Position numbers and translations under genes: made by a program. Under the pieces are notes generated by a model, which saw only the letters and a program-made list of their open reading frames with translations, was not told where the DNA came from and searched no databases. Below are positions 2-14,565 of a stretch of DNA of 32,000 nucleotides, one piece after another (position 1 is the first letter of the stretch; each line of letters starts with the position of its first letter). The stretch lies in the NCBI GenBank assembly GCA_038889235.1, contig JAWAHN010000003.1:143703-175702 (forward strand), given 5' to 3'. Source of the DNA: Candidatus Jordarchaeales archaeon. GTDB taxonomy: Archaea; Asgardarchaeota; Jordiarchaeia; Jordiarchaeales; Freyrarchaeaceae.

Positions 2-652
2 GTGGCTGACGTTGTGGAAGGACCTTTCTGCATCGATGGCACCACGGCTGACGTTAGGATAGCGGGAGCGAGGTATGTTATGGAGGTTGGCTTGTCGAAC
101 CGTGTCATATACAACTCCATAAGCCCAGACGTGAAGGATGCTGAGCTTCAAGCAATCAAGGACGCTGGAATTAAGTCCGCGGTGCTGCTGCTCCTCAACG
201 TTAGAAATCCGCTTATCAGTGGAAAATTCGAGGTAATCGATGAACTATTGCGAAAGGCTTCGACCGCAGGCGTGGAAAACGTCCTCATAGATACTGCTAC
301 CATAGACATATTAGACCCCGGCCCCGTATCTAAAGCGATTTACTTGGTGAAAGAGAGGTATGGCTACCCGGCAGGTTGCGGCGCGCACAACGCCATCGAC
401 ATATGGCGTAAGCGCACGAAGCTGAGCCCAGGCGTAAAGTTCTCAGGGACCATTCTGGCAAACGTCCTACCCGTGGTCATGGGGGCAGACTTCCTCCTCT
501 ATGGACCCATAGAAAACGCGGCAAAAATATACCCTCCAGTGGCGCTTGCAAATGCGTACGCGGCGTACACTTTGTGGCAGGAGTACGGTGTAAAGCCCCC
601 GGCGGGGAACCACCCGTTTTACAACCTTAGCAAAATAGCTGCCATAGAGTAG
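2..652 (+). CDS. mtrH: MtrH/MtgA-like methyl-corrinoid:tetrahydropterin methyltransferase (5'-truncated by window edge)
   Basis: Motifs PFCIDGT, VIYNSI, LIDTA, YGYPAGCGAHNA and MGADFLLYGPIENA match the C-terminal two-thirds of the MtrH family. The frame is open from the window start. Confidence 0.88.
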   Translation: MADVVEGPFCIDGTTADVRIAGARYVMEVGLSNRVIYNSISPDVKDAELQAIKDAGIKSAVLLLLNVRNPLISGKFEVIDELLRKASTAGVENVLIDTATIDILDPGPVSKAIYLVKERYGYPAGCGAHNAIDIWRKRTKLSPGVKFSGTILANVLPVVMGADFLLYGPIENAAKIYPPVALANAYAAYTLWQEYGVKPPAGNHPFYNLSKIAAIE

Positions 653-666
653 AAACAGCTATCTCT

Positions 667-2415
667 ATGAAGCATCCAACTCTCTTCGAGGGAGTGGACG
701 TGGAGCTGGGTGGCGGGCTAGCTCATGTTCTTTCTAAGGCTTACAGTAGGCTGGATGACGTCAGGAAAACGAACATTGCAGTCGCAGTGGTTATCTCTGA
801 GATTTTGAAGACGATGATTGGTCCTAAAGGAATGAGTAAGATGCTGGTTACTGAGACCGGAGACGTGCTAGTGACTAGTAGTGGCAGGGCTATGCTGGAG
901 AGGCTGAGGGTTTCCCACCCTGTTGCTAGAGGCTTGGTGGATGTTGCTAGGGTCCAGGGCGAGCTCACCGGCGATGGAACGAAAACGGCAGTGGTGGTTG
1001 CAGGGGCGCTGCTGAGGGAGGCGGAGAAGCTCATGGATCAGAAGGTTCACGTTACAACCATAATTGAGGGCTACAGGAAGGCGGCTGTCAAAGCCGTGGA
1101 AGTTCTAGAAAGGCTTGCAATTAGAACGTCTGCTGAAAATGAGGAGGTTATAAGGAGTGTCGCAAGAACGTTCCTTAGAGGACGTTTTAATGAGGACGTC
1201 CAGGACCATGTTGCCGACCTGATGCTAAAAGCGGTCCTTCTCACCCACAAAGGGGGGAAAGATGCATCCATTGAAGATGAAGTCTGCTTCGTCAAAAAAG
1301 CCGGTTCAGACGTGAGCGCTTCCGAATTGATTCGCGGCGTTGTTATATGCAGGGAGAAACCTCACCCGAGGATGCCCAGCAAGATGACTAATGTTAAAGT
1401 TGCACTGCTGAACTGTTCGCTTCAACCCTTCCTGCGTAAAAGCGAAGAGTGGAAGAAGGAGTACTTGATTGGCGAGGAAGGTCGACTGGCGGCTTTCATA
1501 AAAGGTGAAAGCGAGATTTACAGGGAAATTGTGGGGCGGGTTAAGCGAGTGGGTGTGTCCGCCGTCTTTTGCCGCAAAAGAATTAGTGAGAAACTGGTTA
1601 GTTGCTTCGCGAGCGAGGGCCTCCTAGCCTTTGAACTTGTTTCGGAGGAGGACATTGCTAGGCTTACGAGGGCAACCAGGGGGCGGGTGGTTTCGTACGT
1701 AAATGACTTGACAGAGAGAGACTTAGGTGTAGCGAGACTCGTGGAGTTCCGGAAAATCGCTGGTGACGAAGTCTTGGTCGTAGAGGGGGGTGAGGGGTCT
1801 ACCGCTGTTACACTGCTCCTGAGAGGGGGAACTACGGAAGCTGTTGAAGAGCTTGAGAGAATGACGAGAAACGGGCTTAAAGCCTTGTCTCTCGCCCTTA
1901 AGGATGGAAGAATCTTGCCGGGCGGTGGGGCTACAGAGGTCGAGGTCTCTAGGGAGTTGAGAAGTTTTTCGAGAGCATTTACCGGCAAGGAGCAACTAGC
2001 CATAGAGGCTTTTGCAAAAGCCATTGAAACAATTCCGAGGATCATCGCGGAGAACGCTGGACTCAAAGCCAGCGACGTTCTACCGGATCTATACGCTAAG
2101 CACGCCGCCGGCGGCAGGAATTTCGGGGTGGACGTTGTCAAGCGCGAGGTCGTCGACACAGTTAAAGCCGGATTGTTCGACGTGTTTGAAGTTAAGAGAC
2201 GCGCAATTCTAGCAGCCTACGAGTTCGCTACGATGATCCTCCGCGTGGACGACGCTGTTGTCGCGAAGACGAGTGAATTGAGGAAAATGGAGGAAGAGAA
2301 GGTGAAGGAAAGGAAGAGGTTTCTCGACGAGAAAATCAGGAAGGTGCTAGGAAAGGACGAGGAGCTAATGAAAGTGAGCAAAAAACTTACAAGCTTAAGC
2401 CCAGCGTTGGACTAA
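667..2415 (+). CDS. Divergent group II chaperonin (thermosome-like subunit) with degenerate ATPase site
   Basis: Colinear with thermosome subunits: IGPKGMSKML, GDGTKTAVVVAG, ELIRGVV, VALLNC, LLRGGT, PGGGATEVE, IAENAG and LRVDDAV. An alternative GTG start at 700 follows a GAGGGAG SD-like motif. Confidence 0.92.
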   Translation: MKHPTLFEGVDVELGGGLAHVLSKAYSRLDDVRKTNIAVAVVISEILKTMIGPKGMSKMLVTETGDVLVTSSGRAMLERLRVSHPVARGLVDVARVQGELTGDGTKTAVVVAGALLREAEKLMDQKVHVTTIIEGYRKAAVKAVEVLERLAIRTSAENEEVIRSVARTFLRGRFNEDVQDHVADLMLKAVLLTHKGGKDASIEDEVCFVKKAGSDVSASELIRGVVICREKPHPRMPSKMTNVKVALLNCSLQPFLRKSEEWKKEYLIGEEGRLAAFIKGESEIYREIVGRVKRVGVSAVFCRKRISEKLVSCFASEGLLAFELVSEEDIARLTRATRGRVVSYVNDLTERDLGVARLVEFRKIAGDEVLVVEGGEGSTAVTLLLRGGTTEAVEELERMTRNGLKALSLALKDGRILPGGGATEVEVSRELRSFSRAFTGKEQLAIEAFAKAIETIPRIIAENAGLKASDVLPDLYAKHAAGGRNFGVDVVKREVVDTVKAGLFDVFEVKRRAILAAYEFATMILRVDDAVVAKTSELRKMEEEKVKERKRFLDEKIRKVLGKDEELMKVSKKLTSLSPALD

Positions 2416-2440: not shown

Positions 2441-3130
2441 TCACTTTTTACCTGTCGCCGGCTTACCCTTTTTTCGCTCTGCGAGAAGTTTTTTCGCCTT
2501 TTCGAGGGCTATCATCACGTCGGTAGCGTAGTCGTCGGCTCCGCACTCCCTACACCACTCTTCACCAGGGAAAGCACCGCCACCAACCATGTAAATGTAC
2601 TTGTCTCTGAGCCCCCTCTTCTTCAAGGCTTCTCCTAGGAACTTTTGCTGTTGAAGCGTATTGCTCATGAGTGCGGAGGCACCAATAATGTCCGCGTTGA
2701 CTTCTTCAGCCTTCTTTATGAAGTTTTCCACAGGCTGATCTACGCCTATATTGTACACCTTGAAGCCCGCTGCAGTAAACACGGCGGTGACGATGTTAAT
2801 GCCAAGACTGTGAATGTCACCCTCAACCGTCCCTATAACCATCACGCCAAGGGGCTCCGGCCTCTTGTCCTCGGGTATGTATTTGAGAAGTTCGTTCGTC
2901 GCTTTCTCCATGACTTGCGCTGCCAGCATTAGGAAGGGTAACGGGATCTCACCTCTACCAAACTTGTCGCCGACTTCCTTTATCCCGGCTGTAAGCCCCT
3001 TAGTGATGGCTTCTACAGGGTCTATCTGGGCTGATATCGCCTCTTTCACTGCAGCCATGGCGGCTGCCTCGTCGAAGTTTACGACAGCCTCGGCCAGCCT
3101 CTTTAGTATCGCTTCTTTCTTGGCGCTCAT
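2441..3130 (-). CDS. Methyltransferase cognate corrinoid protein (MttC/MtbC/MtaC-like; cap domain plus B12-binding domain)
   Basis: N-terminal four-helix cap (GL..GIKEVGDKF..GEI.LP.LMLAA..M), B12 motif GTVEGDIHSLG (DxHxxG), GASALM, VGGG and GADDY. ATGA overlap with the upstream mttB-like stop at 3127-3130. Confidence 0.93.
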   Translation of the reverse strand: MSAKKEAILKRLAEAVVNFDEAAAMAAVKEAISAQIDPVEAITKGLTAGIKEVGDKFGRGEIPLPFLMLAAQVMEKATNELLKYIPEDKRPEPLGVMVIGTVEGDIHSLGINIVTAVFTAAGFKVYNIGVDQPVENFIKKAEEVNADIIGASALMSNTLQQQKFLGEALKKRGLRDKYIYMVGGGAFPGEEWCRECGADDYATDVMIALEKAKKLLAERKKGKPATGKK

Positions 3131-4632
3131 CCCACCCTCACCCTTAACTTTTCGTTCCCCTCCTTAACTATCGCGTTCATCCGCTCAACAACGTCTTTCG
3201 GCAGCGGTTTCGGCTCGTGCTTCTCCAGCTCCTTCAACTTTTCCCTGCAGAGATCGTAAACCCATGAGCGCGCCCCTTTGTTAAGCCACGTGTCAAAGGC
3301 GTCGGTGTCCAGGCAGAAACCTCTAGGGAACATGTTTAAGCGGTCAAGGTTGTACTTATGTGTCATCCACCTCTCGCCCTTGGCGCCAACCTCTTTTATA
3401 ACGTCGAGGGCAAGGTTTTCAGGGGTCGGGTAGATCTGGTGGAAGGTGGACATAAGGGTCCTACCCATCCTTGCTATCTCGGCGCAGATAGGTATTAACG
3501 CTGGGTCGAAGGCTTCTCCTCCACACTGCTCGAATATGAAGTCCGTCCCAGAAATTATTTGTAGCGTCAGATACCTTGCAAGGTTGAATGCTTGCTGATC
3601 AAGACTCGCGGCGAAAGTTCCACCGTACTGCGCTGTTGGCAGCCCGTAGAGCTCATGCCAAAGCTGGTTCATGGCACACGTCCCCAGCATGAAGTGGGGG
3701 ACGTGCGCTCCTCCCCTTCCCGTCATGGGGTCTAAGCTGAAAACTATGTTGTTCGGGACCACCGCGGCTCCGGGGTCGTGAAACTGCTTGAGAGCGGTCA
3801 GGAAGAGTATTCCCGCATGTGAAATGGCAGTGTTTCCGGCAGCCATAGCCGGCCCCATAAGGGGCGCCGCGGCTGTTACAGCAGGCATAATAGGCCAGTG
3901 GTATTTCACGGAGGCTCGGAACAGCCAGCTGTTAAACCTGTTCAGCTGCAATGTGCCGATATAGTTGTAAACTGTCCAGAAAAGCGGCCTCTTCCTCAGC
4001 TCTTCCTCTCCTCCAGCAACTATGGCAGCCAGCCTCTCCACGTAATCGTACTCCTCTATAGTCGAGACCGTTGTGCAGAGGTGGCCCGCCCACTTAGTGG
4101 TGCCCTGGAACATTGCGTTCATCTTGTTGAGCTCTGATGGTAACCCCTGGTGTCCTTCCTCTGCCGCGTCGTATATGTAGACGTTTACGTCGAAGTCGTC
4201 TATTCCGTCCACTATCTTGGCGGCGTATAGCGTGTCCTTCGAGCTCGCCCTCCTACGATAGTACTTTTTGCTTTTCTCGTCCCAGACGAGGACGTCCGTT
4301 GCGCCGCTCTCCGGGGCCCAGTACTGCCTGCGCGCCGGTCCTTCAACCTCGACATCCCACTCAGGCTCCCTTCCAGCTAGGAGGAAGCTCCTAGGCGCCT
4401 TGCGAACTTGCTCCCTGACAACGTGCTCCGGTACATCTGTGACCAGTTTCGTTTCGTAGTTGACGCTGCACCCCATTTCCTCCGCCATCTTTAGCATTTC
4501 TTTGTCGTCTATGAAGACGCCGACATCCTTCAGTATCTTGTAAGCCGCGTTGTCAATTATTTCCAGCTCCTCCCGGTCCAGCACCCTCCATAGGCGACTT
4601 TTAGGCGGTAAAGGAACACCTGTTTTGGGCAA
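3127..4632 (-). CDS. mttB: MttB-superfamily (trimethylamine methyltransferase family) methyltransferase without pyrrolysine
   Basis: The N-terminus (LDREELEIIDNAAYKILKDVGV...APRSFLLAGREP) and the GLPT...DQQA segment are typical of the family. There is no in-frame TAG. TTG start at 4632 preceded by GGTGAGGAGGG. Coupled to the corrinoid gene. Confidence 0.85.
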   Translation of the reverse strand: MPKTGVPLPPKSRLWRVLDREELEIIDNAAYKILKDVGVFIDDKEMLKMAEEMGCSVNYETKLVTDVPEHVVREQVRKAPRSFLLAGREPEWDVEVEGPARRQYWAPESGATDVLVWDEKSKKYYRRRASSKDTLYAAKIVDGIDDFDVNVYIYDAAEEGHQGLPSELNKMNAMFQGTTKWAGHLCTTVSTIEEYDYVERLAAIVAGGEEELRKRPLFWTVYNYIGTLQLNRFNSWLFRASVKYHWPIMPAVTAAAPLMGPAMAAGNTAISHAGILFLTALKQFHDPGAAVVPNNIVFSLDPMTGRGGAHVPHFMLGTCAMNQLWHELYGLPTAQYGGTFAASLDQQAFNLARYLTLQIISGTDFIFEQCGGEAFDPALIPICAEIARMGRTLMSTFHQIYPTPENLALDVIKEVGAKGERWMTHKYNLDRLNMFPRGFCLDTDAFDTWLNKGARSWVYDLCREKLKELEKHEPKPLPKDVVERMNAIVKEGNEKLRVRVG

Positions 4633-4660
4633 CCCTCCTCACCCACCAATTTTTTGGTTT

Positions 4661-4680
4661 TTTAAGTATAAAATAATTTG
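4661..4680 (-). promoter_or_regulatory. Probable TATA box of the mttB-corrinoid operon, within the divergent mttB/RACo control region
   Basis: The minus strand reads caaattaTTTTATACttaaa, about 30-40 nt upstream of the SD and TTG. Confidence 0.4.
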
Positions 4681-4829
4681 TTTCACGAAGTTACAACATA
4701 GTGATTCATGTTGGTAGCTTTGGCCGAGAAATAACGCAACTTTATGCATAAACGTCCGTTTTACTCGAACCTACTCTTAAAAAAGGATAAGGTTGAAATC
4801 ACTATGTATAGTGGACGCCGGTGAAGTGG

Positions 4830-6755
4830 ATGAGCGGAGATGTAACCGTTGTTTTTCAGCCTGAAGGAAAGCGTGTCACAGTGAAGCCTGGGGGGAACCT
4901 GCTGGAGATAGCTAAGCTTGTAGGCGTAGACATCACCTCGGTGTGTGGTGGTAGAGGGACTTGTGGCAAGTGTAAGGTGGTGATCGAGGAGAACAGGGGG
5001 AATGTTTCCCCGCTGACTGCAAAGGAGGGGAAAATCCTGTCCCCCAGCGAGGTTGCTAAAGGGTATAGGCTGGCATGTTGCACGTTCGTTGGTGGCCAAG
5101 TCGTCGTTAAGGTGCCCGAGGAAAGTAGGACGGGGCGGCAGCGGCTTCAAGTTGAGGGAGTAGAAACACCTGTGGCTTTGAATCCACCTGTGTGCAAATA
5201 CTTTTTGAAGCTGCCTAAGCCGTCCCTCAGCGATCCTAAGCCTGACGCCGAGATACTACTCGGCGAGCTGAGACGCCAGGGTGTGGGACGAGATGTGGAA
5301 ATAGACTTTCACGTGCTGCAGACTTTGCCGGTAGCTCTCAGGAAGAAAGATTGGAGTGTAACTGTCGTCATGTGGAATGGCAGGGTCATAGGTGTGGAGC
5401 CCGGTGATACGACTAGGAGAGCGTTCGGCTACGCTGTCGATATAGGGACGACGAAGCTTGCCGGTTACTTGCTCGACCTCTTAACCGGGAAGGTTGTCGC
5501 CGTGGAGTCAATGATGAACCCGCAGATATCTTACGGCGAGGACGTCATAGCCAGGATCACGTACGCGTCTAAGGGGTTAAGGGAGCAGAGGAGACTTCAA
5601 AAAGTTGTCATAAGCGCCATAAACAAGATGCTCGACTCGCTCCTTAATAAGACTGGCGTGAAGAGGGGGGAGGTTTACGAGATGGTTGCCGTTGGCAACA
5701 CCGCAATGCACCACCTCGCTCTGGGCATATGTCCAAAGTATTTAGCCCTGTCACCCTATACGCCAGCCAACAGGAGGGGGGTAAACGTCGCCGCCCGCAA
5801 TCTCGGTGTGAGGATAAACCCGAATGGTAACGTCTACTTTCTCCCCATTATAGGTGGCTTCGTGGGCGCTGACACCATGGGCGTACTTTTAGCGACGGGA
5901 ATGTACAAAAGGGATGAAATGTGCCTAGCGATAGATATTGGGACCAATACGGAAGTCCTTTTGGGAAACAAGGACGAAATATTGGCGTGCTCCTGTGCGT
6001 CGGGCCCGGCTTTTGAGGGGGCACACATAAAACACGGAATGAGGGCGGCCACTGGCGCCATCGAGAAGATAAAGATAGATGAGAAGTTTGAAGTTAAATA
6101 TGAGACCATAGACGGCGAGAAGCCTCGCGGGATATGCGGCTCAGCTATGATAGATTTTCTGGCGGAAGCGCTAAAGGCGGGGTTAATTGACTTCACCGGC
6201 GTTTTCAATAGGGAAATAAGCTCGGACAGGCTGCGCAGCGGGGAAAGAGGACTTGAATTCGTAGTGGCATGGGGAGAGGAAACGTTTACAGGTGAGGACA
6301 TAGTTATAACTCAAAATGACATTAAGGAGATCTTGCTGGCTAAAGCAGCGATACACACGGGGATCAGCATCCTTATGAAGAAGAAGGGTTTAACTGAGAG
6401 GGACATCGACGTCTTCTTCGTCGCCGGAGCATTCGGCTCATACATAAACCCGGAGAACGCTAGGATAATAGGAATGTACCCCGAGCTGCCGTTGGAGAGA
6501 GTACGCGTAGTGGGTAATGCTGCCGGTACTGGTGCTCGCATGGCCCTCTGTTCCAGAGACGTAAGGGAGACCGCCGAAACCCTTGTAGGAAAGGTGAAAT
6601 ATGTTGAGCTCGCCGCGGAGGCGGGCTTTCAAGCGGAGTTCCTTAACTCGTACTTCCTGCCTCACGCTGACCTCTCAAGATATCCTGAAACAAGTGATCT
6701 TCTCAGAAAGCTGGGTAGATACCCCAAAAGGCCTCCAGTATGCTTCCCAACCTGA
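4830..6755 (+). CDS. RACo/DUF4445 (ASKHA) ATP-dependent reductive activator of corrinoid proteins with N-terminal [2Fe-2S] domain
   Basis: N-terminal CGGRGTCGKC...RLAC ferredoxin domain, ASKHA motifs AVDIGTT and IDIGTNTE, plus YGEDVIARI, CASGPAFEG and AGAFGSY. ATG at 4830 follows GGTGA (the ORF track starts at GTG 4821). Confidence 0.92.
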   Translation: MSGDVTVVFQPEGKRVTVKPGGNLLEIAKLVGVDITSVCGGRGTCGKCKVVIEENRGNVSPLTAKEGKILSPSEVAKGYRLACCTFVGGQVVVKVPEESRTGRQRLQVEGVETPVALNPPVCKYFLKLPKPSLSDPKPDAEILLGELRRQGVGRDVEIDFHVLQTLPVALRKKDWSVTVVMWNGRVIGVEPGDTTRRAFGYAVDIGTTKLAGYLLDLLTGKVVAVESMMNPQISYGEDVIARITYASKGLREQRRLQKVVISAINKMLDSLLNKTGVKRGEVYEMVAVGNTAMHHLALGICPKYLALSPYTPANRRGVNVAARNLGVRINPNGNVYFLPIIGGFVGADTMGVLLATGMYKRDEMCLAIDIGTNTEVLLGNKDEILACSCASGPAFEGAHIKHGMRAATGAIEKIKIDEKFEVKYETIDGEKPRGICGSAMIDFLAEALKAGLIDFTGVFNREISSDRLRSGERGLEFVVAWGEETFTGEDIVITQNDIKEILLAKAAIHTGISILMKKKGLTERDIDVFFVAGAFGSYINPENARIIGMYPELPLERVRVVGNAAGTGARMALCSRDVRETAETLVGKVKYVELAAEAGFQAEFLNSYFLPHADLSRYPETSDLLRKLGRYPKRPPVCFPT

Positions 6756-6846
6756 AGGGAACGGAACTGGTGGTATGTCGCGGGATTGGTTATAGCGTTT
6801 TTTGGTAGTTTAAGGTTTCCTTCCAGGAGTGCTGGTGGGCTGGTGA

Positions 6847-7452
6847 TTGGAGGTGGTTAGCGATAGGCTGAGGAGGGTTGTAGAGTTCCTTCAGACTGTT
6901 CAAGGTGTGAGGAAAGTAATAGTTCTAGGTAACGTTGAGCGTGAAGCCCTTCTTCAAGCCGAGTTAAGGGGCGAGAAAAGCGTCATAGGAGGGCAGGGGT
7001 TCAATGAAGGGGTGAGGGAAGCACTTTCCAGGGAGTTTGTTGTCGCATGCTCCACTGATAAACGCTTTAAGTGGCCTAAGGGGCCTTACGTCGTCCTAAA
7101 GAGCGGGGACACTGTTGTCGGCTTCATAACGGATGACGTTGAAAACATAAAGCGACAGTGTAACGAAGAGACTTACGTTTTCGGGGGTAGCTTGATACTC
7201 TTCCCAGACAGAATTAGGAAGTTGAAGGATAAGGAGAAGGCCACGATTTTCGTCTATAAGGGGTTTAAAATGGAGGCGCTTGAGGCAGAAGCGGATGTGA
7301 AGGACGCGGTTTTAGCTTTCTGCACGCGGGCCGGTGACGCGTATCTAAAAAGGCTGCTTGGTGAAAGTGAAGATGCGAGCATCGGGACAATAGTAGTAGG
7401 TTTTAACCTTGAAAAAAGAGGAGAGGACAAAGAGTTGGAGGGAAAGTGTTAG
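6847..7452 (+). CDS. Hypothetical protein (about 200 aa) downstream of RACo
   Basis: Long ORF with gene-like composition, 91 bp after RACo on the same strand. TTG 6847 or GTG 6853 start with a GGTGA/GGAGG SD. No function recognised. Confidence 0.75.
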   Translation: MEVVSDRLRRVVEFLQTVQGVRKVIVLGNVEREALLQAELRGEKSVIGGQGFNEGVREALSREFVVACSTDKRFKWPKGPYVVLKSGDTVVGFITDDVENIKRQCNEETYVFGGSLILFPDRIRKLKDKEKATIFVYKGFKMEALEAEADVKDAVLAFCTRAGDAYLKRLLGESEDASIGTIVVGFNLEKRGEDKELEGKC

Positions 7453-7453
7453 T

Positions 7454-8683
7454 TTAGTACTTGTAGAAGCCTTTTCCAGTCTTTCTTCCCAGCTCGCCCT
7501 TAGCGACCATCTCTTTGAGCAGTGGGTGTGGTGTGAGCAAGGCTTTGAGGTTGTCTATGTGTCCATACTTCTTCGCTAGTTCTTCTAGCTGCTGGACTAC
7601 GACATCTATTCCAAAGCTGTCAGCCAGCTCAAGCACGCCAAACGGCATGTTGAATCCTAATTTCACGGCCTTGTCGACATCTTCTGGTGTTGCAACCTTG
7701 TTGGCGACGAGCTCGGCTGCTATGTTTATCGAGAGGTATATCCCCCAGAATGGCTGGAACTTCTGCTCGGCGGCCTTAGCCGTGCTTTCATTCCACACAG
7801 ATGGAACTTGCCACTTCTTCTCAGGGTACTTGTAGAAGCCCTCCCCCGTCTTAACGCCAAGCTTACCCTCCTTAAAGAGCTTCTCAATTATCGGCGGCAC
7901 CTTGAACTTGCTTGGCTCACGCTCCTCAAAGAACTTCATAACGTGGTAGTTCGTGTCTATACCAGTGTAGTCCATAAGGCCTAGAGCGCCCATCGGCTGA
8001 CCAGCTCTCAAGTGGAGAACCGAGTCTATCTCCTCAGGCTTGAGAATCCCTTCACTTATAAGCCAGCAGAAGAATATCCCGGGCGGAGTCATAACCCTGT
8101 TAGCTATGAAGCCGGGTACATCCTTCTTGCAGTATACCGGGTCCTTGCCCAGCTTCTTCGCAAGATCGTACGTCACTTTGGCTGTCTCATCACTAGTTTT
8201 TTCGCCGTATATGACCTCGACCAGCCTCATCAGCTGCGGCGGGTTGAAGAAGTGCATCCCCACAACTTTGTCCGGCCTCTTCGTCGCCTTAGCAATCTCA
8301 GTTATCGAAAGCGAGCTCGTGTTAGACGCGAGTATGGCGTGAGGCGGGCATATTTTGTCTAGCTCTTTGAATGTCTCCTGCTTAAGGCTCATGACTTCGG
8401 GTATCGCCTCTATTACGAAGTCCGCCTCTTTGGCCGCCTCCTTGAGGTCTAGCGTTGTAGATATCCTTCCCAGCGTGGCTTTAGCGTCAGCCTCGGAAAT
8501 CTTCTGCTTCTCCACAAGTTTGCTGAGACTCCACTGAATCTTCTGCATTCCCGAGTCGAGAAACTCCTGCTTTATGTCACGCAGCCAGACCTTGTAACCG
8601 GCCATGGCGCAGATCTGGGCTATACCGTGACCCATCAGGCCTGCGCCTAGAACTGTTATAGTCTTGATATCCTCAACTTTCAT
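7454..8683 (-). CDS. 3-hydroxyacyl-CoA dehydrogenase (NAD-binding domain plus two C-terminal domains)
   Basis: GAGLMGHGIAQ, EAIPE, ASNTSSL, GMHFFNPP and GFIANR. The C-terminal domain is duplicated and each copy ends in G.KTG.GFYKY. SD GGAGG present. Confidence 0.95.
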   Translation of the reverse strand: MKVEDIKTITVLGAGLMGHGIAQICAMAGYKVWLRDIKQEFLDSGMQKIQWSLSKLVEKQKISEADAKATLGRISTTLDLKEAAKEADFVIEAIPEVMSLKQETFKELDKICPPHAILASNTSSLSITEIAKATKRPDKVVGMHFFNPPQLMRLVEVIYGEKTSDETAKVTYDLAKKLGKDPVYCKKDVPGFIANRVMTPPGIFFCWLISEGILKPEEIDSVLHLRAGQPMGALGLMDYTGIDTNYHVMKFFEEREPSKFKVPPIIEKLFKEGKLGVKTGEGFYKYPEKKWQVPSVWNESTAKAAEQKFQPFWGIYLSINIAAELVANKVATPEDVDKAVKLGFNMPFGVLELADSFGIDVVVQQLEELAKKYGHIDNLKALLTPHPLLKEMVAKGELGRKTGKGFYKY

Positions 8684-8747
8684 TTCACACCATCCTCCAA
8701 CACGCTCGTCCAGCTAGAGATTGAAACTCTCTATTAAGTCTTTCCCT

Positions 8748-9794
8748 CTACCCCTGGAAGGCTGGAGCTATTTTCTCCATATATGTTTTAAGCACGTACT
8801 TTGGATCTGGCCCGATGTTTATGAGGAGGAAGTGTCTGACGCCAGCTTTCCTGAACTCCTCTATCTTTTCTATGCAGTCTTTCGGTGTTCCGACTATGAA
8901 GAAGTCTGTGAGCATTTCGTCTGTAACTTGCTCTGAGAGTTTAACCAGTTGCGTGAGCATTTCGTTTTCCACAAGCAACTCCTCGAAGTAATACCTCTTG
9001 GAGAACTCCTCGGGGATGTTTAAAGTGTACCCTGCCTGCTCGACTTTCTCCACGGTTGATATCAGCATTCCTTTGTAGAGGCGGGCCCTTTCCAAGGCCT
9101 TCTCGTAGCTTTCGTCAACCGCCGTGTACACTTGGAGAGAAGTGTCTATGTCTCTTATGCTCCGGCCAGCCCTCTCCGCCCCCCTCTTAACATCCTCCAA
9201 GTTTTCCCTGTACGTTTTCGGCGTCTCGGTTATGGGCATCCACCCCTCGCAAAGCTCCCCGGCGAGCTCCCTCGTCTTTGGACCATTTGCACCGAGGTAT
9301 ATCGGTATGGTCTTCTGGACAGGTGTGATCTGGAGGAAGGCGTTCCTAAACTTGAAGTACGTTCCATTGTAGGAGAACTTCTCACCTGACCAAAGCTTCT
9401 TCAGAACCTCCACACCTTCTCTAAGTCTCGTGTAAGGGCGCCCCCATTCTATGCCGAAAGGTTTAATGTTCATCGCCTCTCCCGCTCCCAAGCCAAGGAA
9501 GGCCCTACCACCAGACAAATGGTCGATAGTAGCCATAACTTGAGCGAGGACGGACGGGTGATACCTTACCACGTCTGAAACTCCGGTTCCAAGTCTCACC
9601 CTCTTAGTTGTCATCGAGAGCGCCGACATAAGGCTCAGTGCGTTCGGCGTGAAGCCGGGAGGCACCATCAGCGTGTGATCCGGGATAATCAGCGAGAAGT
9701 AGCCTGCCTCGTCAATCATCCCAGCGATTTTCAAAATCTTGTCCATAGGAGGTAGAGGAGGAGGCAAAAGCATACCGAACTTCACTTCAGACAA
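8748..9794 (-). CDS. Luciferase-like (LLM) oxidoreductase, probably F420-dependent
   Basis: IPDH, LGTGV...RYHP..LAQ..AT.D.LSGGR..LG.GAGE..N and IPIYLGANGPK. TTG start with GGAGGGG SD. Confidence 0.88.
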   Translation of the reverse strand: MSEVKFGMLLPPPLPPMDKILKIAGMIDEAGYFSLIIPDHTLMVPPGFTPNALSLMSALSMTTKRVRLGTGVSDVVRYHPSVLAQVMATIDHLSGGRAFLGLGAGEAMNIKPFGIEWGRPYTRLREGVEVLKKLWSGEKFSYNGTYFKFRNAFLQITPVQKTIPIYLGANGPKTRELAGELCEGWMPITETPKTYRENLEDVKRGAERAGRSIRDIDTSLQVYTAVDESYEKALERARLYKGMLISTVEKVEQAGYTLNIPEEFSKRYYFEELLVENEMLTQLVKLSEQVTDEMLTDFFIVGTPKDCIEKIEEFRKAGVRHFLLINIGPDPKYVLKTYMEKIAPAFQG

Positions 9795-9938
9795 GCTAAC
9801 CCCTCCAACTGGAAAACACTCCTATTCACTGAAATTAAAAGCTTTGCTCGCAAAACACATGTCGAAAGCCCAAGTAGCCTTCACAAAGCTAAACCCCACC
9901 AAGCGAAGATGCCAAGTGGGCGCCAAAACAGCAACCGT

Positions 9939-10173
9939 TTAGGCAGACTCAACAGAGTGCAACACCACCCGCAAGATTCCCCGGCTAGCCAGAAGACAAG
10001 ACACCCTCTCCAAGAACCCGTGAACACACGCCAGAGCCCACCCAGGCCACGACCCACCAAACGAGAGTATAGGACAACTCTCTGAAGGAAAGAACAGCAA
10101 AGCCAGCTTACCCAAGGCCAAAAATCACCGGCTCCTCCAAAACTTCAAAACCCTCAATCGGTGACGCACTCAC
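9939..10173 (-). pseudogene. Possible frameshifted small gene upstream of the LLM gene
   Basis: GTG at 10173 after GAGAGGGTGA opens a 21-codon frame. Removing one T from the T5 run at 10120-10124 joins it to the 9939-10121 ORF. Strong G/T strand skew. Product not recognised. Confidence 0.25.
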
Positions 10174-10232
10174 CCTCTCTTAAATAACCCACCAGCCAAA
10201 CTAAATATCAATATTATTTTAATTTAGTAATG

Positions 10233-10240
10233 TTTATAAT
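10233..10240 (+). promoter_or_regulatory. TATA box of a probably leaderless acyl-CoA dehydrogenase transcript
   Basis: TTTATAAT lies 24 nt upstream of ATG 10264, which lacks an SD. Confidence 0.45.
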
Positions 10241-10263
10241 GTAGCTTAGGTCGGACTTCTCTG

Positions 10264-11520
10264 ATGGTGGTCGGTTTGTTTGACATTGTTTTGAGTGAAG
10301 AGGAGAAAAGGATTAGGGATGAGGTTAGGGAGTTCGTTAGGCGCGAGATAACCAGTGAGTATCTTAACATGCTTGACAGGGATGAGCTCGACTTCCCCTT
10401 GGAAGTTTACAGGAAGTTTGGTGAGAGAAACCTTCTTGGGATCAGGTTTCCGAGGGAGTATGGTGGGCGTGGGAGTACTTGGGTGGCTGAGTGCGCTGCT
10501 GTCGAAGAGGTTGGTGTCGTCGGCTCAGCTATAGGGTGCGCTTACTCCATGCCCAGCATTGTTGGTGAGGCGCTTTACCACTTTGGGACTGAGGAGCAGA
10601 AGAGGAAGTACCTTGTGCCCATGCTTAAGGGGAAACTGGTTTCGGCTGAGGCGCTGACGGAGCCCCGCGGGGGCGGTGGCTCAGACTTCTTTGGAACGAC
10701 GACCGTTGCCCGGAAGGAAGGCGAGTATTATATCCTCAATGGGGAGAAGAGGTTTATAGCTGGAGGCAAGACAGCGGACTTCATACTGGTTTACGCTAGG
10801 ACGAACCTCGACCCCAGTGTTCCCGGCCATAGGGCTATAAGTGCCTTCATAGTTGAAAGGAACATGGGTGTCGAAGTCGCATACTCCTACAAGCTCCTCG
10901 GCTTTAGAGGGATGGGGACCTCGCGGCTGGTTTTCAAGGATGTTCAAGTTCCAGCCGAGAACCTCCTCGGAAGGGAGAACGAGGGAGCGGCTATATTCAA
11001 CAAGATGATGGTGCCGGAGAGGCTTACGTCCGCCGCTGGGGCGATAGGTGGCGGCCGGGCGGCACTAGATGTCGCGATAAGGTATAGCATTCTGAGGAAA
11101 GCCTTCGGTAGACCTATAAGGGACTTTCAAGGGGTGAGCTTCAAGGTTGCTGACAGCGTGATGAAACTTGACGCGGCGAGGGCTCTGACGTATATGGCTG
11201 CTAGGACAGCTGACCTTGGGCTTGACGCTAGGAGGCTTGTTGCTGAGGCTAAGGCGTTTGCCACAGAGGCGGCATGGGAGGCTGTGAACAACGCCATGCA
11301 AATACTAGGAGGGATAGGATACACCACTGTTTACCCGGTGGAAAGGGCGCTCAGAGACGCGCGCTTGGGCCTCATATGGACTGGGTCGAACGAAGTCATG
11401 AGGATGATAATACAGCACGAGGTTTACAAAGAGTACTTGAAAGGGGAAAGGCCGCCTGTCAGGGACGTAGAGGAAGACGCCGCGGACGCCGACAAGACAG
11501 AGGAGAAGAGGTATGAGTGA
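10264..11520 (+). CDS. Acyl-CoA dehydrogenase
   Basis: ALTEP...GSD, NGEKRFI, LGFRG, R.AFGRPI.DFQGV, QILGGIGY and GSNEVMR. Confidence 0.95.
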   Translation: MVVGLFDIVLSEEEKRIRDEVREFVRREITSEYLNMLDRDELDFPLEVYRKFGERNLLGIRFPREYGGRGSTWVAECAAVEEVGVVGSAIGCAYSMPSIVGEALYHFGTEEQKRKYLVPMLKGKLVSAEALTEPRGGGGSDFFGTTTVARKEGEYYILNGEKRFIAGGKTADFILVYARTNLDPSVPGHRAISAFIVERNMGVEVAYSYKLLGFRGMGTSRLVFKDVQVPAENLLGRENEGAAIFNKMMVPERLTSAAGAIGGGRAALDVAIRYSILRKAFGRPIRDFQGVSFKVADSVMKLDAARALTYMAARTADLGLDARRLVAEAKAFATEAAWEAVNNAMQILGGIGYTTVYPVERALRDARLGLIWTGSNEVMRMIIQHEVYKEYLKGERPPVRDVEEDAADADKTEEKRYE

Positions 11521-11629
11521 GCCAAGCGTTGTAAAGGTTAGCTTTGACGCGCAAATCAAATAGTTTTTAGGGAAGTGAGACAATACAATTAGTCTGTGTT
11601 CTCTCGTACTGGGTGAGAGGTGTTTCGTT

Positions 11630-12853
11630 TTGAAGGCGTGCGTTTTAGGTTGCGGCACTGTTGGTGGAACGGCCGCGATGATCCTGGGCGGCAGCGAGCT
11701 GTTCGACGAAATAGTCTTGGGAGATATTCGAGTGGAAGCTGCGAAGAGGATAGTCCCGTTCTGCAAGTGCAAGACTGAGGCTAAGCGTGTAGACGTGAAC
11801 AACAAGAACAGTTTGAAGAAGTTTATGAGAGGCGCGGACGTCATATTAAACTGTACGGGTCCGTTCTACGAGTATGGACCAAAGGTTTTAAGGGCCGCGA
11901 TAGAGGCCGGGGTAAACTATGTTGACGTATGCGACGACTTGGACGCGACGCTTGAGCAGCTGAAAATGGACGAGGACGCGAAGAAAGCGGGTGTGACCGC
12001 GCTCATAGGCATGGGCAGCTCGCCTGGTCTCGCCAACGTGATAGCGAAGTACTGCGCTGAGAACCTCTTGGACGAAACAGAGGCCATAGACATACTCCAC
12101 GTTCACGGAGGGGAGGCGAGTGAGGGAGCTGCTGTGATAAAGCACAGGATACACTCGATGATGATGGACATACCAATGTTCCTAGACGGGAAAATGGTGA
12201 CAGTTAGGCTTTTCGAGGAGAGTGGGAGGGCCCTTGAGACGGACGTGGAGTTCCCGGAAATCGGAACATACCGTGTCCACGCGTACCCCCACCCTGAAAC
12301 GATAACCCTGCCAAAGTACATCAAGGGAGTTAAGAGGGTGACAAACCTCGGCACGGTTGCGCCTCCAAAGTACATTAACCTCATAAAGGACGTAGTCAGG
12401 CTCGGGATGACCAGCGAGGAGCCCATAGAAGTGCAGGGGCGAAAGGTCGTCCCGCTGGAGTTCGCGGTCGCTTTCATACTCTCGCAGAGAGAAAAGATAC
12501 TCAAGGAGGCCGGCATGACTCAAGCCATGGGGTGTCTCAAGATAGACGTTAAGGGGAAGAAGAAGGGGGAAGAAGTAACATACTCGTTCTCCTTCACATC
12601 TAAAGGGGCGGGGATGGGTGAAGGAACAGGGATACCAGCAGCAATAGGAACAATATTAATGGCGCAGGGGAAAGTCCACGGGAAAGGTGTGCTCCCACCG
12701 GAGGCTTGCCTAGACCCAATGGATGTCCTAAAGTTGGCACAAGAGATCCTCAAGCGCATGGGGGCTAAAGGCATACCCCTCATAGTGGAGATCACAGACA
12801 AGAAGGGCAAGAGAAGGGTTAAACTAGAAGAAGTCATACCCGGGCTAGCCTAA
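11630..12853 (+). CDS. Saccharopine dehydrogenase-like NAD(P)-dependent oxidoreductase (paralog 1)
   Basis: LGCGTVG Rossmann motif, NCTGPFY, YVDVCDD, GMGSSPGL, HPETITLP and GTGIPAAIG. TTG start with GGTGAGAGGTG SD. Confidence 0.85.
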   Translation: MKACVLGCGTVGGTAAMILGGSELFDEIVLGDIRVEAAKRIVPFCKCKTEAKRVDVNNKNSLKKFMRGADVILNCTGPFYEYGPKVLRAAIEAGVNYVDVCDDLDATLEQLKMDEDAKKAGVTALIGMGSSPGLANVIAKYCAENLLDETEAIDILHVHGGEASEGAAVIKHRIHSMMMDIPMFLDGKMVTVRLFEESGRALETDVEFPEIGTYRVHAYPHPETITLPKYIKGVKRVTNLGTVAPPKYINLIKDVVRLGMTSEEPIEVQGRKVVPLEFAVAFILSQREKILKEAGMTQAMGCLKIDVKGKKKGEEVTYSFSFTSKGAGMGEGTGIPAAIGTILMAQGKVHGKGVLPPEACLDPMDVLKLAQEILKRMGAKGIPLIVEITDKKGKRRVKLEEVIPGLA

Positions 12854-12870
12854 ACCCCCCTTTTTCCCTC
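12854..12870 (+). terminator. Pyrimidine/oligo-T tract after the saccharopine dehydrogenase-like gene
   Basis: A C-run then a T-run follow the stop codon directly, as in archaeal intrinsic terminators. Confidence 0.35.
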
Positions 12871-13088
12871 TGACTCCACTAACCTGCATGTTGAAAACCC
12901 ATAGTATGCGACTTTTACTCGTCCAACTAAAACTTGAAAAGAGAAAGATGTTCTATTAGACGATTAATAGAAGAGCTATGCAGATGAGAAGCAAGGTTGG
13001 CTGGAGAGATGCTCTCCCCTCATTAGGGAACGTGAAATTTAACTCATCTTCGTTGCAGGCTTCATTGTAGAAAAAAGGGTGTTCCGCC

Positions 13089-13934
13089 TTGGAGGCTGCT
13101 TTACTTGTTTTTGGTGACAAGTACGATAGGTTGAGGAGGTTCATCCTTGATAAGGGGAGAAATGGTGTTGTCGTCGCCTTTTCCGGCGGTGTTGATAGTT
13201 CCACACTGGCCGCTGTATGTCGCAGACTGCTGGGGGACAAGGCTGCCGCGGTAACCGTGGTTTCGCCACTCCACCCTCCCGAGGAGGTCGAAGAGGCGTG
13301 CAGGGTCGCGCGTGAGATAGGTGTGAGACACCTTCTTGTTGAGGGTGACCAGCTTTCAGATGAGAACTTTGTCCGGAACATGGAGGACAGGTGTTACCAC
13401 TGCAAGAAGGGTATGTTGAAGACGCTGAGGAAGGTTGCAGACGAACTCGGGTTTGAGGCGATTTTCGAGGGGACGAGCTTCTCGGATTTGGGGGGTCATA
13501 GGCCTGGGTGGAAGGCTGTCATTGAAGTGGACCGTGTTTACAGCCCGTGGGTTGAAGCGAGGTTCACGAAGGACGAAATTAGGGCGTTTGCCAGGGCGCT
13601 GGGTCTCTCGGTGCACGACAAGCCCTCAACAGCGTGCCTAGCAACGCGCATACCCTTTAATGAAAGGATAACAGTCGAGAAGCTTGTAAGGGTAGGTAGG
13701 GCTGAAAGCGTCGTGAAGCGCATAGCAGGGGTAAGGCAGGTTAGGGTGAGAGATCACTGCGGATTGGCGAGGATAGAGGTTAGCAGGAGTGAGCTCGAAA
13801 GGATGCTCAGCTTAGAAGTGTTGGACTCCGTTGCTAGGGAACTTAAAAAACTCGGTTTCAACTATGTCACCTTAGACTTGGAGGGGTATAGGGAGGGGAG
13901 CATGCTTCTAACGGCCAGAGGCTCTGGTAGCTAG
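13089..13934 (+). CDS. larE: LarE-family ATP-dependent sulfur transferase (PP-loop)
   Basis: AFSGGVDS PP-loop, RCYHCK, HRPG, PSTACLATRIP, VRVRDH..LARIEV and GFNYVTLDLEGYREGS. Confidence 0.9.
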   Translation: MEAALLVFGDKYDRLRRFILDKGRNGVVVAFSGGVDSSTLAAVCRRLLGDKAAAVTVVSPLHPPEEVEEACRVAREIGVRHLLVEGDQLSDENFVRNMEDRCYHCKKGMLKTLRKVADELGFEAIFEGTSFSDLGGHRPGWKAVIEVDRVYSPWVEARFTKDEIRAFARALGLSVHDKPSTACLATRIPFNERITVEKLVRVGRAESVVKRIAGVRQVRVRDHCGLARIEVSRSELERMLSLEVLDSVARELKKLGFNYVTLDLEGYREGSMLLTARGSGS

Positions 13935-14021
13935 CCTGAAAGCTGGTGGTAAGCTTTGGGAGCAACGTTGAGAAAAGTGTTCTCGAAGCACAGAGTATTT
14001 GTCCACTCTTCTTAGGGGTTT

Positions 14022-14396
14022 TCAGCACTTGAAGAAGAGCCAGCCGTCTTTCACTTTTTCAAACCTTATCAGGCAGTATCGTCCCCTCAGTTTTTCCCCC
14101 TTCATGTAGACGACTATCTCCTTGTCGGTCCACTTCTCCTCCTCGTAAACCCCCCGGTCCCATATTTCCACTTTCCCCGCTCCATACTCCCCTTCGGGGA
14201 TTATCCCTTCGAAGGACGCGTAGTCTAATGGGTGGTCTGCTACGGCTACAGCGAGCCTTTTCACGCCCCTTGTAGTCGGCGGCTCTTTGGGTACCGCCCA
14301 GCTTTTAAGAACACCGTCTTTCTCCAGTCTTAAATCCCAGTGCAGGTGGCTGGCGTAATGCTTCTGGATAACATAAATTCTTTCAGAACTCTTCAC
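14022..14396 (-). CDS. Stand-alone LigD-type DNA 3'-phosphoesterase (PE domain)
   Basis: [32 protein letters not shown]...[27 protein letters not shown] 14396 is preferred because it sits about 26 nt below a TTTTTATT box; the ORF-track ATG is at 14441. Confidence 0.92.
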
Positions 14397-14565
14397 GAGA
14401 TAATTGAAGCCTAGTGCTCCCAATAAAAATTTAACTTTCATGGGTCGGCGCCGGTTCCTTCCCTTGGAAAACTCTAAACATTTAAGCCCACAAGCAGCGT
14501 TTGAGAATGAGAAAAGTAAATAAGCCAGGTGGAATGAGAGTTGGCTCGCAAGGGAGGGGAATAGT

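Follow-up and report, generated by a model that had tools for sequence, protein, structure and literature searches.

Can a chaperonin that lacks both catalytic carboxylates of its nucleotide site be a maintained, working protein, and what ties its gene to those of corrinoid methyltransferases? The question is raised by a stretch of 32,000 nucleotides from a Candidatus Jordarchaeales archaeon (assembly GCA_038889235.1, contig JAWAHN010000003.1, positions 143,703-175,702 of the forward strand; hereafter the window, to which all coordinates refer unless a locus is named). Near its start an open reading frame (ORF) encodes P0001, a thermosome-like protein of 582 amino acids. With moderate confidence, and from sequence comparison, we read P0001 as a pathway-dedicated "MT-linked chaperonin" (MT, methyltransferase) that belongs to an old monophyletic clade travelling with corrinoid methyltransferase modules, and that would bind nucleotide and hydrolyse it poorly or not at all.

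Fold and nucleotide site of P0001

The stop-free translation matches the PF00118 (Cpn60_TCP1) profile over positions 1-489 of 490 and aligns colinearly with solved thermosomes across about 505 residues, at 37-44% identity. The first-pass annotation of this DNA, which had described the ORF as intact and colinear with thermosomes, was correct in this. Among the NCBIfam models, thermosome_alpha was exceeded (477.5 bits, cut-off 450), while TIGR02339 (thermosome_arch), which describes the housekeeping archaeal thermosome subfamily, gave 476.6 bits and did not reach its cut-off of 671. The CCT models scored 266-302 bits, far under their own cut-offs and under the thermosome models. The likelier start of the protein is the GTG at position 700, since it is preceded by a Shine-Dalgarno-like GAGGGAG and the orthologs, 572 amino acids long, start about 11 residues later than the full ORF; the product would then have 571 amino acids.

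An AlphaFold2 model of P0001 (predicted local distance difference test, pLDDT, 82.9; predicted template modelling score 0.75) was compared to known structures with Foldseek. Template modelling scores, normalised to the target, ranged from 0.85 to 0.92 against the thermosomes of Mm-cpn, KS-1 and T. acidophilum, Mm-cpn being the top match at 0.92. As modelled, P0001 has the equatorial, intermediate and apical domains of the thermosome fold with the built-in helical lid, the tip of which is altered and modelled at low confidence. The alignment also shows that the terminal segments xILxKG, near the N-terminus, and ILRIDD, near the C-terminus, are retained; we take these to be the segments that pair neighbouring ring subunits in solved thermosomes. 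Judged by its sequence relationships and predicted fold, P0001 is a group II chaperonin by descent, and not a canonical ATPase.

All of the nucleotide-site substitutions listed in the first-pass annotation were found at the residues and nucleotides given there. They comprise TMIGP at residues 49-53 (M50, nucleotide 814), GMSKM at 55-59, VTSSG at 69-73, the P-loop GDGTKT, R173 in the nucleotide-sensing loop (nucleotide 1183) and RMTRNG at 398-403. Alignment places S72 and N402 at the positions of the two catalytic carboxylates, so that both are absent, as had been proposed. At the second of these the E-x-x-x-D-A-L motif of other chaperonins matches E397...N402-G-L. In Mm-cpn the two residues are, in what we take to be the correct numbering, D60 and D386; a short-segment search gave an offset of 12 to Mm-cpn numbering, consistent with S72 being the equivalent of D60. 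All canonical thermosome homologs that we tabulated carry the Asp of a TNDG- or TSDG-type motif and the Asp of the xDA motif.

The genome (2.14 Mb, 95% complete) includes three PF00118 genes. Canonical thermosomes, for which the first-pass annotation had proposed to look elsewhere in the genome, account for two of them. These score 681 and 667 bits, compared to 468 bits for P0001, and their motifs are all intact (TNDG, GDGTTT, ER..(H/N)DA and GGGA.E).

A conserved clade of chaperonin paralogs

Homologs were collected by a word-indexed search, by a profile search of 1.84 billion representatives and by scanning GTDB genomes for two peptide patterns specific to the clade, and more than 25 intact homologs of P0001 were recovered. 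In the tree, 29 sequences form one side of a branch with a Shimodaira-Hasegawa-like approximate likelihood ratio test (SH-aLRT) value of 100. The other side holds 61 canonical and divergent thermosome-like proteins, including the canonical copies from the same Asgard and Methanomethylicia genomes. Members of the clade come from Ca. Jordarchaeales, Jordarchaeum, Jordarchaeia and Freyarchaeota, and from Ca. Methanomethylicus mesodigestus, Methanomethylicaceae, related metagenome-assembled genomes (MAGs) and one Promethearchaeia MAG. Searching 151 sampled genomes of Asgardarchaeota with a clade-specific profile gave scores of at least 208 bits in nine genomes only, all of them from the order of the window, and canonical copies did not exceed 148 bits. 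No copy of the paralog turned up in 140 other sampled Asgard genomes; in most of them there are two matches of the canonical type.

Residues shared by the clade are K106, P254, Y266, R305, S307, E548, R551 and E555. Compared to the canonical CPLEIEKTE.DA.I, the lid tip has three extra residues and includes Pro, Trp and Tyr positions that are conserved, P254 and Y266 being invariant; in the model, lid residues 257-264 have a pLDDT below 50. The motif FC(R/Q)KR(I/V/M)S stands in place of the canonical FCQKGID, and FCRKRIS, used as a search pattern in GTDB genomes, retrieved clade members only. A charged C-terminal extension of 45-60 residues (47 in P0001) with the core ERKR...EK.R...EEL, in which E548, R551 and E555 are invariant, replaces the short canonical tail. 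Helices are predicted up to residue 575, with a pLDDT of about 72-74 at residues 540-560. P0001 itself lies inside the clade split and has K106, the FC[RQ]KR[IVM]S motif, the longer lid tip and the charged tail. Two tandem proteins of about 1050 amino acids (P0124 and P0126) were considered as members and rejected, as the tree puts both of their halves outside the clade. Neither this clade nor any chaperonin encoded in a corrinoid methyltransferase operon was described in the literature searched.

Thermosome-like proteins from metagenomes (P0127-P0271) are also extremely diverse and show changes to the P-loop, the lid and the catalytic residues; some of them include inteins or long insertions (e.g. 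P0152 and P0142).

The Jordarchaeales orthologs of P0001 (72-74% and 58% identity) share the losses: the first site is occupied by Ser/Asn or Ala/Asn, the second by Asn. The ratio of nonsynonymous to synonymous substitution rates (dN/dS, Nei-Gojobori) among them is 0.08-0.18, at a dS of 0.76 to about 2 that is partly saturated. The ratio is given for these closer pairs only, as dS is saturated beyond Jordarchaeales; the coding sequences of loci L004 and L005, and those of L006 and L007, are identical and hence uninformative. Both the sharing of the losses by orthologs and the purifying selection that the first-pass annotation had looked to are thus borne out. A sediment metatranscriptome library contains contigs from a relative with 95-99% identity. 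They map to parts of mtrH, the 3' third of the chaperonin gene, the corrinoid-protein gene and mttB, and one of them spans the mtrH-chaperonin junction (positions 533-712). These contigs are a weak sign of expression and may stem from carried-over DNA. They leave positions 751-1750 uncovered, and a second RNA run had no match on the stretch; neither is evidence of absence. A duplicate in decay, a pseudogene in progress, would fit the lost catalytic residues and the thermosome_arch score below cut-off. We give it practically no credence: more than 25 genomes have an unbroken ORF, dN/dS is low, the clade has invariant residues and a conserved novel tail, and the gene is represented in an RNA library. 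The conservation data refute decay, and by the same sequence comparisons the gene is maintained. With both carboxylates absent, the losses shared and dN/dS low, P0001 is a maintained protein that is very probably incapable of the canonical hydrolysis step, much as had been proposed.

Residues of the nucleotide site were counted in the 29 clade members and in 46 non-clade sequences, the latter deliberately enriched for divergent proteins. The equivalent of D60 in the clade is D in 12, E in 5, S in 4, N in 4, K in 2, G in 1 and H in 1 sequence; at the equivalent of D386 the counts are D 7, A 6, N 4, S 4, G 3, E 2, H 1, F 1 and Q 1. Outside the clade, Asp was found in 45/46 and 43/46 sequences, respectively. 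Substitutions such as those of P0001 go well beyond what would be expected by chance. On the 75-sequence tree, which includes the 46 non-clade rows, at least six to seven changes of state are required at each catalytic position; since three non-clade sequences have Asn at the D386 position, as many as three of its seven changes may fall outside the clade. The most reduced members are those of Jordarchaeales: in all four lineages both Asp are absent and the Asp of GMDKM is replaced by Ser, and in three of the four the sensing-loop Lys/Arg is also gone (F, S or Y).

The rest of the pocket tells a different story, and the description of the site as systematically degenerate has to be given up. 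The loops LGP.G, GDGT.T and GGGA.E are all found in P0001 and are nearly invariant across the clade (G102-D103-G104, T105, T107, G419-G421, A422 and E424), with GDG, GGGA and E424 kept in 28-29 of the 29 members. Arg in the sensing loop, correctly noted by the first-pass annotation as a Lys-to-Arg change, is no sign of degeneracy, being conservative and the norm of the clade (18/29). Nor is GDGTKT a mark of a dead site. Lys at its middle position occurs in all 29 members, but two canonical Thermoproteota thermosomes with every catalytic residue intact also carry GDGTKT (L034, 123-1850, minus strand; L035, 171-1820, minus strand). It is a natural variant, and as a sign of a dead site it was rejected; the string was not found in the literature searched. 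As the binding pocket is conserved while the catalytic carboxylates vary freely, the alignment argues for a clade function in which nucleotide binding still matters and hydrolysis is dispensable.

The strict conservation of the loops could also be explained by a divergent but active ATP-driven chaperonin, in which the catalytic base comes from other residues or from an adjacent subunit, and methyltransferase clients are folded in a normal cycle that may be slow. K106 corresponds to T97 in the alpha subunit of T. acidophilum. T97 hydrogen-bonds the gamma-phosphate, and the T97V mutation abolishes detectable ATPase activity (PMC5983026); K106 could contact the gamma-phosphate. The canonical thermosomes with GDGTKT, and the six clade members that keep both Asp, also agree with an active enzyme. 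We nevertheless regard it as rather unlikely. The loss of both carboxylates in four Jordarchaeales lineages, accompanied by that of the sensing-loop residue in three, speaks against it, as does the range of residues at the D386 position (A, G, S, F, H, Q and N), which includes no conserved alternative catalytic residue; moreover, Mm-cpn D386A serves as a hydrolysis-dead mutant.

Linkage to corrinoid methyltransferase genes

Neighbouring genes were mapped in all fetched loci from pre-computed Pfam calls and by a phmmer screen with the window's own proteins. Corrinoid methyltransferase genes, namely those for an MttB-like methyltransferase 1 (MT1), a corrinoid protein, an MtrH/MtaA-like methyltransferase 2 (MT2) and the reductive activator of corrinoid proteins (RACo), lie within about 8 kb of the chaperonin gene at 16 of 20 distinct loci. 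In a control set of 11 canonical thermosome loci from the same genomes, none had any such gene within 8 kb. This neighbourhood, which the first-pass annotation did not mention, is the strongest pointer to the function of P0001. The linked loci come from three lineages and show at least four different gene orders. All Jordarchaeales loci have the arrangement of the window. In Freyarchaeum the order is chaperonin, corrinoid protein, MttB and RACo; the Promethearchaeia MAG and one Methanomethylicia locus have the chaperonin after RACo; another locus reads RACo, MtaA-like protein, chaperonin, MttB and corrinoid protein. Methanomethylicia share a conserved operon of MttB, corrinoid protein, a small SCP2-like protein, MtaA-like MT2, MoxR AAA+ protein, VWA protein, a second corrinoid protein and the chaperonin; here the chaperonin gene begins inside the preceding corrinoid-protein gene or almost directly after it. 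Of all neighbours RACo is the most regular: it immediately precedes the chaperonin in L010 and L029 and is next to it in most of the remaining loci.

Because gene order differs among lineages while the association persists, functional coupling is a reasonable conclusion. Within the order of the window, eight genomes have the chaperonin together with the MttB ortholog and one 94%-complete genome (G075) has neither; the two discordant genomes are assemblies of 540-640 contigs. These data also bear on a plainer explanation, in which P0001 would be a generic "silent" third subunit of the housekeeping hetero-ring, devoid of pathway specificity, and its neighbourhood inherited synteny. Conservation of the terminal segments, which we take to pair between subunits, would suit such a role, and hetero-oligomeric thermosomes tolerate hydrolysis-blocked subunits (PMC5983026, PMC5413064). 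We hold it to be very improbable, as the linkage survives at least four gene orders in three distant lineages and is absent at 11 canonical loci, the paralog and the MttB ortholog are missing together from G075, and the paralog was not found in the 140 other Asgard genomes sampled.

In the window, the chaperonin gene directly follows an mtrH-like gene on the same strand, the full-length L004 ortholog of which scores 305 bits with the NCBIfam MtrH model and 261 bits with MtgA. Two genes away lies mttB, the sole MTTB gene of the genome. Each of the Jordarchaeales loci encodes the 201-amino-acid protein after RACo (homologs in L004-L007, L016 and L018), and this protein may be a further component of the methyltransferase module.

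Table 1 Features of the chaperonin gene and its neighbourhood. Coordinates are those of the window, except where a locus is named.
Feature	Coordinates	Strand	Evidence or remark
mtrH/MtgA-like MT2 methyltransferase (methyl-corrinoid to pterin), 3' part	2..652	+	PF02007 155 bits; 5' end beyond window edge
Thermosome paralog, methyltransferase-linked clade (P0001)	667..2415	+	PF00118 468 bits; AlphaFold2 pLDDT 82.9; SH-aLRT 100
S71-S72 replacing N-D of TNDG (GroEL D52 / Mm-cpn D60 equivalent)	877..882	+	First catalytic carboxylate lost
P-loop GDGTKT, residues 102-107	970..987	+	K106 clade-invariant (29/29)
Altered lid tip, CSL.PF.RK..W.KEY type	1414..1464	+	Alignment
Clade signature FCRKRIS replacing canonical FCQKGID	1567..1587	+	Alignment
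N402 replacing catalytic Asp of ER...DA (GroEL D398 / Mm-cpn D386 equivalent)	1870..1872	+	Second catalytic carboxylate lost
GGGATE nucleotide-binding loop, kept	1921..1938	+	G419, G421, A422, E424 (near-)invariant in clade
C-terminal extension, 47 residues, Lys/Arg/Glu-rich	2272..2412	+	Alignment, composition, AlphaFold2 helices
Corrinoid (B12-binding) protein, MtbC/MtgC-like, D-x-H-x-x-G	2441..3130	-	PF02310 and PF02607; MtbC 195, MtgC 180 bits, below cut-offs
MttB-family MT1 methyltransferase, no in-frame stop	3127..4632	-	PF06253 120 bits; TIGR02369 190 bits vs cut-off 525
RACo/AcsV-like reductive activator of corrinoid proteins	4821..6755	+	Fer2 and RACo linker, middle and C-terminal domains; AcsV 529 bits
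Conserved 201-amino-acid protein	6847..7452	+	No Pfam/NCBIfam match
130-amino-acid SCP2-like protein	L014 1851-2243; L008 4620-4994; L011 1943-2335; L013 2575-2967; L015 11909-12301; L040 15945-16340		

Several further observations concern the modules. All Methanomethylicia operons (L011, L014, L015 and L024-L028) encode a MoxR-type AAA_5 protein and a VWA protein between the MtaA-like MT2 and the second corrinoid protein, directly upstream of the chaperonin (e.g. L014, 3442-5294). The 130-amino-acid protein, whose similarity to SCP2 is weak, is conserved beside the corrinoid protein in many modules of both Methanomethylicia and Asgard archaea. In the species that encodes the ortholog P0003, the chaperonin is intact, but its MttB neighbour consists of two overlapping ORFs (L004/L005, 8438-9942; L017, 6344-7878); since this split is identical in three independent assemblies, it is a fixed or programmed frameshift. 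A second RACo homolog of the window's own genome, outside the window (G000:C1:162634-163377), has one in-frame TAG that could be a pyrrolysine codon, a pseudogene mutation or an assembly error.

Freyarchaeia genomes encode seven chaperonin units each. On the complete Freyarchaeum chromosome CP147778 a second corrinoid module (L040, G005:C1:3100000-3119999, at 4417-14513) includes RACo, MtrH, a corrinoid protein and three DsrE/F/H-like genes, together with a 569-amino-acid divergent chaperonin and a 1081-amino-acid tandem fusion of two units, the C-terminal half of which lacks the D386 equivalent. The tree puts the chaperonin units of this module outside the clade of P0001, and paralogs were therefore probably recruited to corrinoid modules more than once.

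Possible function and relation to known systems

How could such a protein work? By our reading P0001 would bind ATP and show very slow hydrolysis or none. The lid of group II chaperonins closes after hydrolysis, with which the D386A structures are consistent. Alone, P0001 presumably could not drive hydrolysis-triggered lid closure, and for this reason a homo-oligomer would stay open, as a holdase or assembly platform. It might form a ring of its own, or be a substrate-recruiting, non-hydrolysing subunit mixed with the two housekeeping subunits. In either form it would be dedicated to the methyltransferase system, whose components it would hold or help to assemble. TIM barrels are a fold class that depends heavily on chaperonins in bacteria, and the TIM-barrel proteins MttB and MtrH/MtaA are likely clients, as is the corrinoid protein, which has to be loaded with cobamide and repaired by RACo, during folding, loading or repair. 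The N- and C-termini of known thermosomes are located at the floor of the cavity, and this chamber would be substantially changed by eight or nine charged helices of 47 residues.

The same features could serve a nucleotide-gated cage or scaffold which is not a folding chaperone, and which houses or shields the oxygen- and oxidation-sensitive Co(I) corrinoid protein during methyl transfer or RACo reactivation. RACo is the most constant neighbour, the lid is changed, the long charged C-terminal helix would project into the cavity floor given the known thermosome architecture, and MoxR-VWA remodelling pairs are encoded in the same Methanomethylicia operons. Such a cage has no known precedent, and the group II cavity is small for MttB oligomers; we consider it an improbable alternative.

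Several points weigh against the reading of P0001 as a methyltransferase-dedicated chaperonin that binds nucleotide and does not cycle. Both Asp are kept in only six of the 29 clade members, from which it follows that the ancestral protein of the clade was probably an active ATPase and that some members may still cycle. With M50 in place of the Thr of TTLGP and S57 in place of the Asp of GMDKM, P0001 may not bind nucleotide at all. Four loci (L019, L020, L022 and L023), which form one Freyarchaeia-type subclade, are unlinked, with the MttB ortholog on another contig; this subclade keeps the upstream 3-hydroxyacyl-CoA dehydrogenase pair of the linked Freyarchaeum locus. Gene neighbourhood shows coupling, but not its nature. 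Finally, ATP binding, hydrolysis, ring formation and clients of P0001 are all inferred.

Only tentatively do we extend the proposal for P0001 to a wider one. The corrinoid systems of several archaeal lineages might need a private, chaperonin-derived cage, nucleotide-switched and non-hydrolysing, that matures, loads with cobamide or protects the corrinoid protein and the TIM-barrel methyltransferases; in Freyarchaeia it would have expanded to seven units per genome, including the fused tandem pair of a second methyltransferase cluster, as a client-driven diversification of archaeal subunits in parallel to the origin of CCT in the Asgard-eukaryote lineage.

Archaeal group II chaperonins are treated as general ATP-driven folding machines, and the paralogs known to be client-specialised or ATP-silent are mainly eukaryotic (CCT subunits, BBS6/10/12). 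The clade would offer a natural system for studying what a chaperonin can do when it binds nucleotide but does not hydrolyse it. It would also be an unrecognised accessory of corrinoid methyltransferase pathways, with a bearing on methylotrophic methanogenesis and Asgard C1 metabolism, and could explain trouble in expressing corrinoid methyltransferases heterologously. Jord- and Freyarchaeia provide a view of chaperonin family expansion in archaeal relatives of eukaryotes. Should P0001 be only a slow ordinary thermosome subunit, the finding would shrink to an annotation note.

The closest known relatives are the archaeal thermosomes (Mm-cpn, T. acidophilum alpha/beta and Thermococcus KS-1), with which P0001 shares the family, the three-domain fold, the lid segment, the P-loop GDG, GGGA.E and the terminal strands. 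It differs from them in the loss of both catalytic Asp, in the longer aromatic lid tip, in FCRKRIS and in the charged tail of 47 residues; its gene, moreover, lies in a metabolic operon and is not a stand-alone heat-shock gene. With regard to the site, there are engineered parallels. PDB entries 3j02 and 3izh describe Mm-cpn D386A in a pre-hydrolysis, ATP-bound state, and PMC5413064 reports that replacing this Asp with Ala yields ATPase-deficient CCT subunits that still assemble double rings. The Mm-cpn D386A and CCT "HYD" mutants thus lack the same carboxylate as P0001 and still bind ATP and assemble (titles of PDB entries 3j02, 3izh and 5w74; PMC5413064). Unlike in the mutants, the loss in P0001 is natural, is fixed under purifying selection and is accompanied by the loss of the second Asp and by new conserved features.

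Among natural proteins, CCT3/6/8 and BBS6, BBS10 and BBS12 are likewise specialised group II paralogs with reduced or no ATP cycling and with client or assembly roles, according to PMC5413064 and PMC2846930. The comparison with CCT, which the first-pass annotation had drawn, is loose, because in PMC5413064 all eight CCT subunits had a conserved catalytic Asp, which was replaced in each; the present clade has lost this Asp repeatedly, is archaeal and is encoded in operons. Supernumerary, divergent thermosome subunits 4 and 5 have been described in M. acetivorans (Maeder et al. 2005, as cited in PMC6420498). They are likewise extra group II paralogs in a methylotrophic archaeon and probably do not belong to this clade, as no Methanosarcina locus was found in the clade-specific pattern scan of GTDB genomes. 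The likeness to MoxR-VWA pairs is of another kind. Pairs such as NorQ/NorD and CbbQ/CbbO are remodelling chaperones encoded beside their metalloenzyme. They are similar to the clade in logic only, that of a chaperone gene in a cofactor-enzyme operon, and differ in family and mechanism; in Methanomethylicia, a MoxR (AAA_5) and VWA pair shares the operon with the chaperonin itself.

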